DNA of 64,000 nt, from positions 1 to 64,000 of the IMG/VR virus record IMGVR_UViG_3300036792_000176. The stretch is one strand, 5' to 3'. Positions 1,161 to 58,244 of the stretch are shown one piece after another. Below the pieces are notes generated by a model. The model saw only the letters and a program-made list of their open reading frames with translations. It was not told the DNA's origin and ran no database searches. Positions within the stretch are counted from its first letter, which is position 1, and the number at the start of each line of letters is the position of its first letter. The stretch is from a virus. The translations under genes and the position numbers were made by a program.

Positions 1161-1462
1161 AACTGCCCCCAGCTTTCGTCGTTGCCGTCTTTGGCATTCT
1201 TGCTCTTCATCATGGCGGGAGACGGGGTAGCGGGCTTCCCCGTCGGGGGCGGGTCGGCCGGTACGTCGGGGGCGGGGTCGGAGCTCGGAGCCTCGGAGGT
1301 TTCGGCGTCCGCCGGTACTTCGGTACCCCCTTCCGCTTCCGAGGCGCTTATTTCGGAGCCTAGCGCCTCGGCCGTCTCTGATGGCTTGTCAGTGAAACAC
1401 TGCGGACAGAACAGCTCACTGCTTATGATGTTCTTGCACCCGCAAGATTCGCAATCCCACAT
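1148..1462 (-). CDS. Small protein with N-terminal Zn-ribbon (WxCxxC...CxxC) and disordered tail
   Basis: MWDCESCGCKN...CPQC; lies in head operon. Confidence 0.6.
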   Translation of the reverse strand: MWDCESCGCKNIISSELFCPQCFTDKPSETAEALGSEISASEAEGGTEVPADAETSEAPSSDPAPDVPADPPPTGKPATPSPAMMKSKNAKDGNDESWGQLCRA

Positions 1463-1470
1463 CTCTACCC

Positions 1471-1968
1471 CTACGCAGCCGTTATTGTCGCGCCACTGTC
1501 ATACGCGAAGTACGTGACAGAGTAGACGATCGCCCCGGTGTTGGTCGCGCTCGTCTGGACGATTATTGCTCCGGCGGGAACGAGCGCAATTCCACCACTC
1601 TGGATCGGTACCGAAATGGTATTCCCCAGAATGACACCAGAGGCTGAGCTGACGATCAGGGCACTAGTCTGCGCCACCGGAAGCGCCAGCGATGTGCCGA
1701 CCGTTATGCCGCTGATTGATGTAGCGGTGCAGAGTGACGTTGGAGCGGCGGACCCGCCGGTCGGCGTATTGCCGACCGACAGGGTACACGCCTGGCTCTG
1801 CACGACCGTCGTGACCACAGCTGTCAGGCTGGTGATCACAACTCGGCCACCGACCACATTGAATATGGTCTGTGGCGTATTCAGGGCCGGCAGGGTCTTG
1901 GCCCCGCCGGTCACCAGAGCTCCGTAGTTCGCCTCTCGAACCTGCAGAGGCAATGGGTTGGCGGACAT
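1471..1968 (-). CDS. Putative virion decoration protein, paralog 3
   Basis: Shares G.I.VTS..A.V.T / VPAG.I...T.ATNTG...Y..Y..YD.GA pattern with the two neighbouring ORFs. Confidence 0.6.
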   Translation of the reverse strand: MSANPLPLQVREANYGALVTGGAKTLPALNTPQTIFNVVGGRVVITSLTAVVTTVVQSQACTLSVGNTPTGGSAAPTSLCTATSISGITVGTSLALPVAQTSALIVSSASGVILGNTISVPIQSGGIALVPAGAIIVQTSATNTGAIVYSVTYFAYDSGATITAA

Positions 1969-2711
1969 CAGGACACCTGCGCCAGAACGCCCACGCCGGG
2001 GCTGTTGTCAAGCGGCACATAGGTCATGTACCACTTAACAGTTCCGGTGTTGGTCGCCGTGGTTGTCAGGGTTATGTTGCCCACAGGGACTATGAACCCG
2101 CAGTCCTTCGGCACGCTCATCCCGCCGCTGGCGGCTATCTCCAGAGCAGCGCTTCCGGTCCACGTCCATGTCGGCGCGGCGGACCCGGCCCATGCGATAT
2201 TGCCATGAGCCGGAACCGTGTACGTCGCAGGACTCCATGGGGTGGTACCCACAGGCACGCCGTTGACGGTGACGCCGGTCAGCACGCCACCAGCCATCGC
2301 GACGTCCACAGACCCATGGTACGTGTTGACGGCAGGAACACCTGTCGCAGGAACGGCCGGTGTGACCAGCGCACCACCAGCAGCACCCGCGGCTGCTGGC
2401 GCTGAGATCATCGTTCCTGCAGCCAGCGACGTGACCAGAGTCGGGCCGCCGATACCGGGAGTAGCTGCAGCCCCGACGGTAGGAGCCATGCCGATCGACA
2501 GGCTGGTGACCGTTGACGACATCGCTGACGCAACGATCCCAACTAGCGACGTGACGAGGATAGCCCCGCCGCTAACCTTGAACAGCGTGCTCGTTCCGGT
2601 TGCAGGAAGAGCGAGAGGACCCTTGACGACCTGGGCGCCAGCGACGATTGCCCTGAGCTGGTACCCAGGGATCTCGTTGACATCCTTGAGTGGATTTCCG
2701 GTAGTTGCCAC
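1968..2711 (-). CDS. Putative virion decoration protein, paralog 2 (with internal insertion)
   Basis: GYQLR...GAILVTS.VG.V...APTVGAAA..GI...WY.TYVPLDN shared with 2721-3200. Confidence 0.65.
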   Translation of the reverse strand: MATTGNPLKDVNEIPGYQLRAIVAGAQVVKGPLALPATGTSTLFKVSGGAILVTSLVGIVASAMSSTVTSLSIGMAPTVGAAATPGIGGPTLVTSLAAGTMISAPAAAGAAGGALVTPAVPATGVPAVNTYHGSVDVAMAGGVLTGVTVNGVPVGTTPWSPATYTVPAHGNIAWAGSAAPTWTWTGSAALEIAASGGMSVPKDCGFIVPVGNITLTTTATNTGTVKWYMTYVPLDNSPGVGVLAQVS

Positions 2712-2720
2712 GACGAGCTC

Positions 2721-56044: not shown

Positions 56045-56953
56045 ATGCAGATGGCACCAGTCAAGCGGGGCGCTCGTCGTGGCCGGCCAACCGCTAAGTC
56101 ACAGCGTGAAGAGCCAGAGAGCATGGAGGTTGATGAGGTCGAGGTCGATATTGAGGATCTCGGCTCATTCGCTGAGAGCATCAACATACTGCTCTATGGC
56201 CCTAGTGGTGTGGGGAAGACCGTACTTGCCGGTGGTGCCCCGAACGCTACTTTCTTCTCGACAGAAAAGGGTGTCATTGCGGCTCGCCGAGCAGGCCACA
56301 AGGCTGGGCTGATCCGTGTGCCTACCTGGGAGCACGTCGTGGCAGGCCTCAAGGTGGCAGACGCCAGACTGGGCCCTGAAGACTGGCTTATCGTCGACAG
56401 CATCACGAAGATGCAGATGCTGTACATTCGATGGATCCTCAAGGTCAACAATCAGCGCAACGGCTCTCGTGACCTTGACATCCCTGCCATCCAGGATCAC
56501 CAGAAGTGGCAGAACGGGTACATGCGCTTCATCGACCATATCGTCGATGCGCAGTACAACTCCATACTGATCGCCACGCAGATGATGAAGGAGGACGAGG
56601 AGGGGGAGGACATGATCCTCCCGGCTATCACCGGCAAGGGATACGCGATAGCCGAGTATGTCTGCGCCCAGACAGACGTGAATCTGTACTACAACGTCTC
56701 GGCCACTGCCAGCACCGACGATATGACCATCCGGAGAGCCCTCGCACAACCATATCCCCCTTACCACGCCAAGGACCGGTACAACTGCCTCGGGAAGTTC
56801 GTGGACGTGGAAGAGAACGATTTCGGAGCGATGAATGGAATCATCGGCAGTATCCAGTCAAGCCTCGACGAGCCCGCAAACGACGAGGTACATCAAGTGC
56901 AGCCAGCACAACTCAATCGTCGCACGCGGAAGCGGAATAAGGCTAGTGCATAA
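56045..56953 (+). CDS. AAA_24/Sak4-like ATPase (recombinase)
   Basis: ILLYGPSGVGKT, LIVDSIT, AKDR; lies between nuclease and SSB. Confidence 0.85.
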   Translation: MQMAPVKRGARRGRPTAKSQREEPESMEVDEVEVDIEDLGSFAESINILLYGPSGVGKTVLAGGAPNATFFSTEKGVIAARRAGHKAGLIRVPTWEHVVAGLKVADARLGPEDWLIVDSITKMQMLYIRWILKVNNQRNGSRDLDIPAIQDHQKWQNGYMRFIDHIVDAQYNSILIATQMMKEDEEGEDMILPAITGKGYAIAEYVCAQTDVNLYYNVSATASTDDMTIRRALAQPYPPYHAKDRYNCLGKFVDVEENDFGAMNGIIGSIQSSLDEPANDEVHQVQPAQLNRRTRKRNKASA

Positions 56954-57048
56954 GAAGTCTGGCGTGATTTGCACCAGCCAAATGTTCCAGGTCGTCGAGG
57001 TTCCCAAGGTGAACCGAGAGACGGCATTCGCTGAATTTATGGGATGGG

Positions 57049-57363
57049 ATGGCGATGGGCCCGAGCAGCGATCGTCCTCTGCACCCTGATGAGAAGCTCG
57101 GGATCACCGAGCATAAGCCCGAGACATTCTTCATCGTGACAAATGGAGGTCCGCATCCAGGAACCAGGGTGACGGATGAGGGCCAGATGCCATGGCCACT
57201 ACCCGGCATCCTAGGCGACTCGGGCGGACGGTACATCAAGATCTCCGAGAGCAATCTCGGTCCGCAGGGCGCTGGCAGCCGTATCGTGCGAAGCGCTCTG
57301 TACAAATGGGAGTCGGATACCCCATCCGGCGTCGTAGAAGGAGAGGCAGGCCAAGTTGCCTAA
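57049..57363 (+). CDS. Hypothetical protein
   Basis: ORF overlapping the SSB start. Confidence 0.5.
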   Translation: MAMGPSSDRPLHPDEKLGITEHKPETFFIVTNGGPHPGTRVTDEGQMPWPLPGILGDSGGRYIKISESNLGPQGAGSRIVRSALYKWESDTPSGVVEGEAGQVA

Positions 57364-58225
57364 GTTCAGGGTTCCCGACGAGGACATGGACATAAAAGAG
57401 CTCGAGGAGGCCGAGTTCGACGAGGAGGGCCAGTTTAAGCCCTACACGGGCAAGCAGCCGCCCAAGGGCACGATCCTGCGAGGGATCATCAAGAAAGCCT
57501 GGATGACCGAGACCAACGCTGGCAAGCTGATGCTCAAGGTGATCTTCGAGGCCACCGAGGAATCCGGCGAGTACGAGGGTCTGGGCATCTGGGACAACAT
57601 CGCGTTCCAGCCCAACACGAAGTTCAGGTGGAAGCCGTTCCTGGACGCGACGGGGCTGACGCTCAGGGGCATTAAGACTCAGATGTACCTTGAGGACGAT
57701 GACGACAACATCGGCTCTCCGATCATCAGGATCGGCAAGGACTGGGTCGTCGGCGAAGACAGCACCGCGGTCATGGTCGTCACAAGGCGCACGCGCCGTG
57801 ACGGCGAGTGGGAGTCCGAGGTCGACTCCTGGCTTGAGTACGAGGCCCCTGAGGGTGACGACGAAGATGACGAGGAGGAGGAAGAGGAGGAGCTTGAGGA
57901 AGAGCTCGATGACGAGGAAGAAGAGGATGATGAGGAGGACGAGGACGAGGACGAGGACGAGGACGAGGAAGTAGAGGACGAGGCTGAGGAAGAAGAGGAA
58001 GAGGACGAAGAGGAAGAGGAAACTGCCCCTCCCGTCAAGCCCGCTAAACGGGCCGTTACGCGGCCGGTAGCCGCTAAAGCCGCTACCCCTAAGCCGACGG
58101 CCGCTAGGCCGGTAGCTCGGAGCTCCGCCCCCGCCCCGAAGGCCGCGAAAGCCGCGAAAGCTAGCGGTAGGCCGGTAGCGCGCGGTAAGGTTAAGCGAGG
58201 CGGCTCGGAAGAGCCTCCGTTCTAA
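57356..58225 (+). CDS. Putative single-stranded DNA-binding protein with acidic tract and basic tail
   Basis: P.G......K.....T..G..ML...F, Y.G..IWD; C-terminal EEPPF; follows Sak4-like gene. Confidence 0.7.
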   Translation: MPKFRVPDEDMDIKELEEAEFDEEGQFKPYTGKQPPKGTILRGIIKKAWMTETNAGKLMLKVIFEATEESGEYEGLGIWDNIAFQPNTKFRWKPFLDATGLTLRGIKTQMYLEDDDDNIGSPIIRIGKDWVVGEDSTAVMVVTRRTRRDGEWESEVDSWLEYEAPEGDDEDDEEEEEEELEEELDDEEEEDDEEDEDEDEDEDEEVEDEAEEEEEEDEEEEETAPPVKPAKRAVTRPVAAKAATPKPTAARPVARSSAPAPKAAKAAKASGRPVARGKVKRGGSEEPPF

Positions 58226-58244
58226 CAATCCCCCTCAAATAGAC

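Follow-up and report, generated by a model that had tools for sequence, protein, structure and literature searches.

Hypermodification of thymidine in the sequence context TG has been described in several phages: it is reported for Pseudomonas phage M6, Salmonella phage ViI and Delftia phage phiW-14 (PMC6449724), and also for the Pbunaviruses F8 and 14-1 (PMC12191111). Going by what these publications say on the point, F8 and M6 count as TG-modified or TG/TC-modified phages. Our study concerns an uncultured virus, IMG/VR record IMGVR_UViG_3300036792_000176 (hereafter G000; 87,997 bp, linear, about 93% complete), whose first 64 kb form the window analysed here (64,000 nt, 59.5% GC) and which carries, mostly in regulatory regions, a series of patches with neither CA nor TG on either strand. 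An earlier note on this DNA had read these patches, or islands, as the footprint of a possible undescribed context-specific DNA modification; "undescribed" was too strong a word, given the published cases of TG-context thymidine hypermodification just cited. As judged from the alignments presented below, the islands are cis-regulatory DNA purged of CA/TG by continuous selection. That a base modification in CA/TG context in the phage DNA is the reason for them is the explanation we favour, though we would stop a little short of calling it probable.

The nine long CA/TG-free runs listed in the earlier note were all reproduced exactly and measure 78 to 190 nt (Table 1). CA/TG occurs 8143 times in the window, or once per 7.86 bp, which is denser than the one in roughly 10 bp that had been estimated by eye. 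The claim that such gaps are very unlikely by chance was borne out, since the nine runs of at least 78 nt have no counterpart in 60 simulations of the window under a first-order Markov model that preserves dinucleotide frequencies, where the longest run averaged 60.9 nt (standard deviation [sd] 6.5, maximum 76). The probability of finding no CA/TG, calculated from each island's own base composition, lies between 2e-5 and 1.4e-11, and no other dinucleotide pair of similar frequency yields comparable runs. The stretches that had been called shorter or nearly free likewise hold 0-3 CA/TG where 5-15 are expected. A tenth run of 76 nt (49108-49183) is a trivial GAG/GAC acidic repeat, and two further islands lie beyond the window, at 69736-69825 and 69846-69927 of the record. 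The longest run free of CA/TG on both strands remains that of 190 nt; stripping of whole genes, over 1 kb or more, was not found. The assignment of the islands to promoters and other intergenic sites holds for promoters and regulatory DNA but not for two of the nine islands, which are coding sequence.

The description of the islands as TA-rich proved correct for the TA step, which has a frequency of 0.086 against 0.039 in the genome (rho 3.4), but not for base composition: the islands are GC-rich (0.62-0.73, above the genome), not AT-rich. The CG step is also raised (0.143 against 0.086 in the genome, rho 1.24-1.39) and AT is depleted (rho 0.6). Pyrimidine-purine steps add up to about 23% in the islands and 25% in the genome but are shifted to TA and CG, which stand in for CA/TG about equally. 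Since GA/TC (frequency 0.042-0.048) and AA/TT (0.032-0.035) are still present, A and T do occur outside TA, yet never as CA or TG. The motifs CCTAG, CCCTAG and CCGGTA are enriched 15-fold, 20-fold and 10-fold, respectively, and the spacing of TA shows weak peaks at 6 and 11-12 nt. Enrichment of stop codons was rejected, TAG (72) being about as frequent as TAC (65).

Evidence for selection comes from G001, a complete relative of 94,579 bp that shares 91% amino-acid identity in the large terminase (TerL), 89% in the major capsid protein and 65-81% (about 75%) identity at the nucleotide level. It contains 13 runs of at least 60 nt, most of them at places orthologous to the islands of G000. Alignment of eight island pairs gave 178 differences, whose spectrum (C/G 65, transitions 51, A/C plus G/T 48, A/T 14) is roughly that of random replacement at this composition. 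The orthologous stretches of G001 nevertheless hold 11 CA/TG where 47.6 are expected (sd 5.4; minimum of 28 in 2000 simulations). TA is the best-conserved island dinucleotide (52 of 67), and none of its 15 changes gives CA or TG. Near-random divergence with CA/TG still kept out indicates that the exclusion is maintained independently in each lineage, and on this comparison ongoing selection keeps the islands CA/TG-free; that the islands exist and are kept by selection we regard as close to certain.

Islands of the same style are found in the main control regions of distant relatives with 55-65% identity in TerL: positions 11672-12071 of G002, a relative grouped with the island-bearers whose contig is about 53% complete, contain no TG, and G004 has a run of 124 nt. 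No islands were seen in Streptomyces phage Dagobah (longest run 66 nt) or in most other TerL relatives. Among 80 viral loci taken from an alignment of the thymidylate synthase ThyX, each covering 10 kb on either side of the gene, 20 carry a total of 27 significant TA-containing islands, the longest being 224, 209 and 175 nt. Two sites recur in these loci: one, upstream of ThyX, is the basic tail of an SSB-like protein, and the other is intergenic and lies 6-7 kb downstream. In the ThyX tree the island-bearing phages group together, at 55-63% identity.

A pointer to why the islands exist comes from restriction-site avoidance. If CA/TG steps were protected, restriction sites that contain them would need no avoidance. 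We called a 6-bp palindrome avoided when its observed count was at most 0.35 of expectation with a Poisson p below 0.01 and an expected count of at least 4, and removal of near-duplicates left 22 island-bearing records and 64 island-less relatives. Palindromes containing CA/TG are avoided in 0 of 176 cases in the island-bearers, which avoid 76 of 609 others, whereas the island-less relatives avoid 16 of 379 with CA/TG (mainly CTGCAG and CAGCTG) and 149 of 1170 without. The two groups differ for CA/TG palindromes (Fisher p=0.002) and not for the rest (p=0.94). Counted per record, the figures for CA/TG palindromes are 0 of 22 in the island-bearing and 13 of 44 in the island-less group (p=0.0025); without de-duplication the counts are 1/187 and 16/400 (p=0.012). 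In F8 and M6, which are known to be TG-modified, 0 of 26 CA/TG palindromes and 31 of 65 others are avoided, which indicates that the approach detects a known case. The contrast thus suggests, if indirectly, a mark in CA/TG context in the island-bearing phages; it is predicted by such a mark on the phage DNA and by none of the rival explanations considered below.

The first early transcription unit shows a second pattern, confined to one strand. Between the promoter at 17298 and position 18565, the plus strand has 13 CA where its composition predicts 73, 72 TG against 71 expected and 75 TA against 37 expected. Depletion of CA with normal TG on the plus strand means that the template strand is poor in TG. 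CA-free runs in this unit reach 465, 319 and 192 nt, the leader excludes CA while retaining 18 TG, ATGs among them, and synonymous resampling gives z values of -4.3 and -3.6. The second gene (18301-18507) encodes neither His nor Gln. In coding DNA at large, synonymous codon choice does not avoid CA/TG.

Under the explanation that we favour, the phage DNA would carry a base modification in CA/TG context, the modified base being, by analogy with the published cases, the T of TG. Where host RNA polymerase and regulators have to recognise virion DNA, neither strand would be allowed a modifiable step; in the first early transcription unit, only the template strand would be kept without TG. The islands themselves cover early promoters, large hairpins clamped by GGAGCTCC, leaders of genes, and regulatory DNA that overlaps two coding tails of low complexity. 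The wider proposition, that a large uncultured clade of soil phages with probably actinobacterial hosts modifies its DNA in CA/TG context by enzymes unrelated to the 5-hydroxymethyldeoxyuridine (5-hmdU) kinase pathway, with islands mark-free on both strands and a first unit mark-free on its template strand, is one that we put forward more tentatively.

A number of observations weigh against a mark. F8 and M6, although TG-modified, show no islands in excess of chance, with 88 and 79 nt as the lengths of their longest runs. The orthologous leader in G001 shows a depletion of CA that is only about two-fold, with a weak strand bias, and genes that follow the other island promoters use CA/TG normally, so that blocking of the template cannot be a general principle. 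One relative, G003, was placed among the island-bearers by the style of its runs alone, these (66 and 63 nt) being within chance. Since the island-bearers group together in the ThyX tree, they may have in common a range of hosts without enzymes that cut at such sites. This could mimic the palindrome contrast, which may thus be confounded by host range or phylogeny. The searches for an enzyme point the same way. The profile of the TGT/DpdA transglycosylases (PF01702) matched 14 of 14 control genomes but neither G000 nor G001, and those of the N6/N4 (PF01555) and C5 (PF00145) DNA methyltransferases matched neither record. The ThyA-type profile PF00303, which did match its control genomes, found nothing in G000, G001 or G002; the thymidylate synthase gene seen is of the ThyX family only. 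Queries with gp54 and gp51 of M6 (5-hmdU DNA kinase and amino-acid:DNA transferase) gave no match at E<=0.1 in the same three records, at single-sequence sensitivity and without a positive control, so that distant forms could be missed. About 70 proteins compared with Pfam, PHROGs or NCBIfam included no known DNA-modifying enzyme.

The earlier note had named an enzyme cluster at 58.6-63.5 kb and a GNAT acetyltransferase at 34 kb as candidate contributors. The GNAT match is weak. The part of the cluster common to G000, G001 and G002 comprises the FAD-like oxidoreductase, ThyX, the DUF1599-like protein, PHP and DnaE, and the HIT gene, the exonuclease at 61649 and the methyltransferase at 62314 found no match in the roughly half-complete G002; the methyltransferase (Methyltransf_11, 62314-63033) resembles enzymes acting on small molecules. 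Relatives without islands have the FAD-like, ThyX and DUF1599-like genes as well. The oxidoreductase-like gene is kept in G001 and G002, and its homologues were found exclusively in actinophages (90 records, from phages of Microbacterium, Mycobacterium, Gordonia, Streptomyces, Arthrobacter and Nocardia). An FAD oxidoreductase and an acetyltransferase, along with a kinase and a transferase, take part in the synthesis of 5-acetylaminomethyl-deoxyuridine (5-AcNmdU) in phage PaMx11, as has been reported (PMC8989533). The kinase and transferase required by a pathway of that type were not found in G000, G001 or G002. The ThyX-family protein has the motif RQR, as do 110 of 111 motif-matched sequences among its top homologues, which lie on phage-sized metagenomic contigs of up to 107 kb; F8 ThyX reads RTR. 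Canonical ThyX proteins carry RHR-x7-S, and the RQR type may represent a functionally distinct subfamily. RQR cannot be the determinant of the islands, since island-less relatives carry it too. The DUF1599-like protein, from a family that we take to be the same as Nmad1, is a lead only. On the whole, the modification of the CA/TG step proposed in the earlier note gains indirect support from the palindromes and none from a known modification enzyme.

Other explanations account for parts of these data. Selection at the level of a dinucleotide, avoidance of CA in the first unit on the non-template (RNA-like) strand and the failure to find modification genes would all fit an agent acting in trans, host-side or other (a nuclease, a deaminase, a natural product damaging exposed or single-stranded DNA, or an RNase), that reads CA/TG and from which regulatory DNA and the first transcript have been purged. 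We think this unlikely: we know of no agent with two-base specificity, islands of 80-190 nt far exceed a transcription bubble, an RNase limited to untranslated RNA would have spared the translated tail at 58037-58226, and CA/TG palindromes left unavoided in the island-bearers alone are not predicted. Less likely again is that the islands are a by-product of a regulatory vocabulary, GC-rich hairpins and TA-centred motifs (GGTACC, CCTAGC, CCGGTA, TAGCGS, TATACY, GGAGCTCC) that simply happen to lack CA/TG. The strong enrichment of such motifs, the conservation of TA, the common promoter family and the two significant hairpins (see below) speak for it, but orthologous islands have diverged nearly to saturation with CA/TG still excluded, A and T outside TA are found as GA/TC and AA/TT and never as CA/TG, five of the eight islands that were folded behave like shuffled sequence, and the palindrome contrast is left unexplained.

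We give very little credence to two further possibilities. One is hygiene of translation, by which start codons (NTG) and TGA would be kept off both strands to block spurious translation, including leaderless translation, near promoters. Leaderless translation is known in actinobacteria; an apparent case lies at 16394, where an ATG stands 6 nt past the -10 box of the minus-strand promoter and suggests that the leftward-operon mRNA is probably leaderless. Several islands, moreover, stop at a true start codon (41755, 16394), and AT is depleted as well. In non-palindromic islands, however, CA is missing from the same strand as well, two of the islands are coding tails that are translated, the first early leader lacks CA yet keeps its TGs, ATGs included, and islands 29678 and 32645 end in NTGs that are not starts. 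The other is a local mutation bias resembling the repeat-induced point mutation (RIP) of fungi, by which C-to-T changes at CpA on both strands would turn CA/TG into TA. The RIP indices fit (TpA/ApT about 5.4, (CA+TG)/(AC+GT) = 0), TA is doubled in the first unit, and in the coding tail codons that precede a codon starting with A end in T in 10 of 15 cases and valine is GTA or GTT. The gain in AT and loss of CG expected from such a bias are nevertheless contradicted by enriched CG and a GC content above that of the genome; Asp (C|GAC) in the early gene faces Asn (C|AAC) in its paralogue, a change from CA to CG and not to TA, and the patches have sharp edges beyond which synonymous sites of the flanking genes are unaffected.

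Table 1. Islands, nearly CA/TG-free stretches and candidate genes in the window; run lengths are given for the nine long islands, and numbers after "vs" are expected CA/TG counts.
Position	Strand	CA/TG-free run (nt)	Feature	Details
1214-1379	-	166	island in S/E/A/P low-complexity linker of zinc-ribbon open reading frame 1148-1462	motifs GAGCTC, GGCTCCGAAATAAG
16395-16445	-		promoter of leftward operon, CA/TG-free	TAGCGG-N18-TATACT; 0 vs 6.5
17281-17458	+	178	island, divergent control region	early promoter TAGCGC-N17-TATACT; long G/C hairpin region
17281-18565	+		first early transcription unit	430-nt leader and genes 17761-18156, 18301-18507; CA depleted on coding strand only
21121-21216	+		promoter island, nearly CA/TG-free	TAGCGG-N17-TATACT; 2 vs 12.2
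23603-23720	+		intergenic stretch, nearly CA/TG-free	TATACT box; 3 vs 15.0
27059-27142	+	84	hairpin of about 85 nt, CA/TG-free, two GGAGCTCC palindromes as clamps	RNA fold -43.2 kcal/mol, z -2.05
29678-29763	+	86	stretch directly upstream of TAGGGC-N16-TATACC	no significant fold
32645-32733	+	89	stretch upstream of TAGCGG-N17-TATACC	no significant fold
35041-35148	+	108	island between convergent genes	perfect 14-bp GC-rich stem; GGAGCTCC/GAGCTCC motifs; fold -67.4 kcal/mol, z -4.79
36193-36270	+	78	leader of primase-helicase gene 36279-38420	G001 identity 74/78 nt
38403-38497	+		stretch past primase stop codon, nearly CA/TG-free	3 vs 12.1
41659-41756	+	98	island	end coincides with GTG start of gene 41755-42528
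44958-44999	+		short intergenic CA/TG-free stretch	0 vs 5.3
48832-48914	+		promoter, nearly CA/TG-free	TAGCGC-N17-TATAGT; kept in G001; 1 vs 10.6
58037-58226	+	190	longest island, Ala/Lys/Pro/Arg tail of SSB-like protein 57356-58225	codons avoid CA/TG (GCT|AAA, GTA for Val)
58612-59442	+		FAD/NAD-binding oxidoreductase-like gene beside ThyX, candidate contributor	weak N-terminal Pfam/NCBIfam matches; phrog_8720
59736-60653	+		ThyX-family gene	RQR motif; Pfam Thy1 1.2e-34; TIGR02170 85.8 bits, cut-off 87.9
63035-63541	+		DUF1599-like small protein gene	feature score 0.90 to DUF1599 clusters; no Pfam match at 0.01; in G001 and G002

A promoter family of the form TAGCGS-N16-18-TATACY was found at 16401 (minus strand), 17298, 21157, 29755, 32725 and 48840, in every case in or at an island; its -35 box, TAGCGS, is unlike the sigma-70 consensus. 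Within 16001-36000, sigma-70-like promoters (TTGACA-N17-TATAAT) are no more frequent than expected (6 against 6.4), and a search for terminators (hairpin plus T-run) gave 16 matches against 11.0 expected (sd 3.5); one weak match (23670-23655) falls in a nearly free stretch and none in the main islands. Islands 29678 and 32645 share an element of about 45 nt; the former overlaps the final 35 nt of gene 29065-29712. The promoter at 48832-48914 sits within the long open frame 48431-49660. Of the eight islands folded, five were no more structured than shuffles and those at 27059 and 35041 form significant hairpins, the 14-bp stem of the latter being kept in G001. Hairpin symmetry as the cause of exclusion on both strands was rejected, since it cannot account for the five that fold like shuffles. 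Left of the early promoter island, at 17102-17196, lie two tandem 46-nt repeats (87% identical) with TTGGTAGCCATAATG, which do contain CA/TG.

Both coding islands have counterparts in relatives. The tail at 58037-58226 is identical to that of G001 at 146 of 184 nt and is CA/TG-free in many relatives too; all 12 of its internal TAA/TAG triplets are out of frame. The proteins encoded by 48431-49660 and 57356-58225 share a layout, with a globular N-terminus, a long Asp/Glu run and an Ala/Lys/Pro basic tail, and only the second tail is CA/TG-free: the paralogous tail at 49416-49601 uses GCC|AAG freely. The zinc-ribbon frame 1148-1462 is conserved in G001 (tblastn 8e-13), where the orthologous stretch has a 93-nt run.

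The early region has several other features. The C-terminal domain of the first early protein, encoded by 17761-18156, recurs in the 339-aa product of gene 25913-26932 (74% nucleotide identity over 88 nt), and the two copies of the domain differ greatly in dinucleotide usage. An apparent opposite bias at 25504-26932, with few TG and many CA, was discarded as a mere consequence of T-poor composition (TG 35 against 31 and 5 against 11, CA 93 against 89). Short C/A-rich, T-poor leaders lie directly 5' of genes at 25840-25912, 27897-27930 and 28150-28187; the first has no obvious Shine-Dalgarno sequence, and the gene that follows it has a GC3 of 0.96 and very few T. A double-hairpin repeat with the core GCTACCACGGTAGGTAGC recurs among the small early genes at a spacing of about 339 bp (18201-18238, 18540-18577, 18879-18916 and 19789-19826).

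The window belongs to a tailed phage, whose minus strand encodes an HK97-type capsid protein, a ClpP-like prohead protease, a portal and a large terminase. Small early genes occupy a long block of the plus strand, along with a replication module of prim-pol/AAA_25 helicase, SNF2, PD-(D/E)XK nuclease, AAA_24, ThyX, DEDD exonuclease and a DnaE that is split into PHP and Pol III alpha. Among sequencing runs, this DNA was located in a single one, as contigs of a soil metagenome that is its probable source, and in no RNA run. The replication region also encodes two tRNAs with anticodon CAT (Met, initiator or Ile2 type) 1.7 kb apart, at 52377-52451 and 54123-54197; Rfam at gathering thresholds reported these two tRNA-Met genes and no other RNA family. 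A ParB-like protein from the same region (43957-44808; HTH_ParB 6e-11, weak ParB_N) could bind the repeated island motifs. It was the exception among 20 mid-region proteins, 19 of which had no Pfam match, as had all 10 early proteins; a PHROGs search of 10 proteins was uninformative. The ends of G000 (1-623 and 86821-87964) align to neighbouring places in G001, and the contig is therefore probably a circularly permuted version of a genome bearing terminal repeats; synteny with G001 places the physical genome ends near 72 kb of G000. Megablast of 36000-48000 found no match among 50,697 phage records, a TerL alignment search of genome contigs for prophages or hosts matched 514 pattern stretches without finding a relative, and an SNF2 alignment search gave G001 and one 26% relative, with nothing further. 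The closest capsid relative is that of Dagobah (47%), and the phage encodes DUF3631, Rv2179c-like, ricin-lectin and Rpf-type transglycosylase domains. G000 avoids the palindromes ACGCGT, GGCGCC, AGGCCT, GCCGGC and CCGCGG, which are typical of actinobacterial restriction enzymes. Together with the oxidoreductase homologues, the capsid, the domains and the avoided sites suggest that the host is probably actinobacterial.

Our literature searches found no paper describing CA/TG-free regulatory islands in phages. What is new here is the dispersal of small islands through a probable actinophage clade, together with a first piece of independent evidence for a mark, the palindrome contrast; TG-context hypermodification as such was already known. 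If the mark is real, islands combined with unavoided restriction sites of the same step would flag context-specific hypermodification in uncultured phages without chemistry. The islands would show which parts of the genome host proteins must read, so that early promoters and regulators could be mapped from them. They would also help to trace new modification enzymes in this clade, of which metagenomes contain hundreds of members. If there is no mark, an unknown agent with two-base specificity shapes the regulatory DNA of these phages.

Of the systems described so far, the TG-hypermodified phages come closest. F8 and M6 share the palindrome signature of the island-bearers, none avoiding sites with CA/TG, and F8 resembles G000 in having a ThyX-family gene with a non-canonical motif (RTR in F8, RQR here) and a DnaE-type polymerase; the F8 annotation also lists a MazG-like gene. 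Unlike these phages, G000 has no detectable 5-hmdU DNA kinase, transferase or ThyA-type hydroxymethylase, and its host is probably actinobacterial; F8 and M6, for their part, lack CA/TG-free islands beyond chance. The main intergenic regions of M6 (3489-3553 and 29629-29707) share the repeat GGTAAGTAAGTTAAG... and contain CA/TG-free runs of 79 and 65 nt, the longest and fourth-longest in M6 (neither beyond chance), as well as its two longest runs free of CA, TG, TC and GA. Phages are also known to avoid restriction sites and to keep first-entering DNA free of particular motifs. The islands resemble such avoidance in that selection removes a short motif because something acts on it, but what is avoided here is a dinucleotide, and it is excluded completely within local patches instead of being avoided across the genome. 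In vertebrates, CpG islands are unmethylated and so retain the modifiable step. They too are regulatory patches whose dinucleotide content is unlike that of the bulk genome, and their cause is a context-specific DNA mark, whereas in the phage islands the presumed modifiable step is wholly absent and selection, not mutation pressure, is indicated. Should the mark exist, these phages would have a counterpart of CpG-island architecture, with genomes organised around it.

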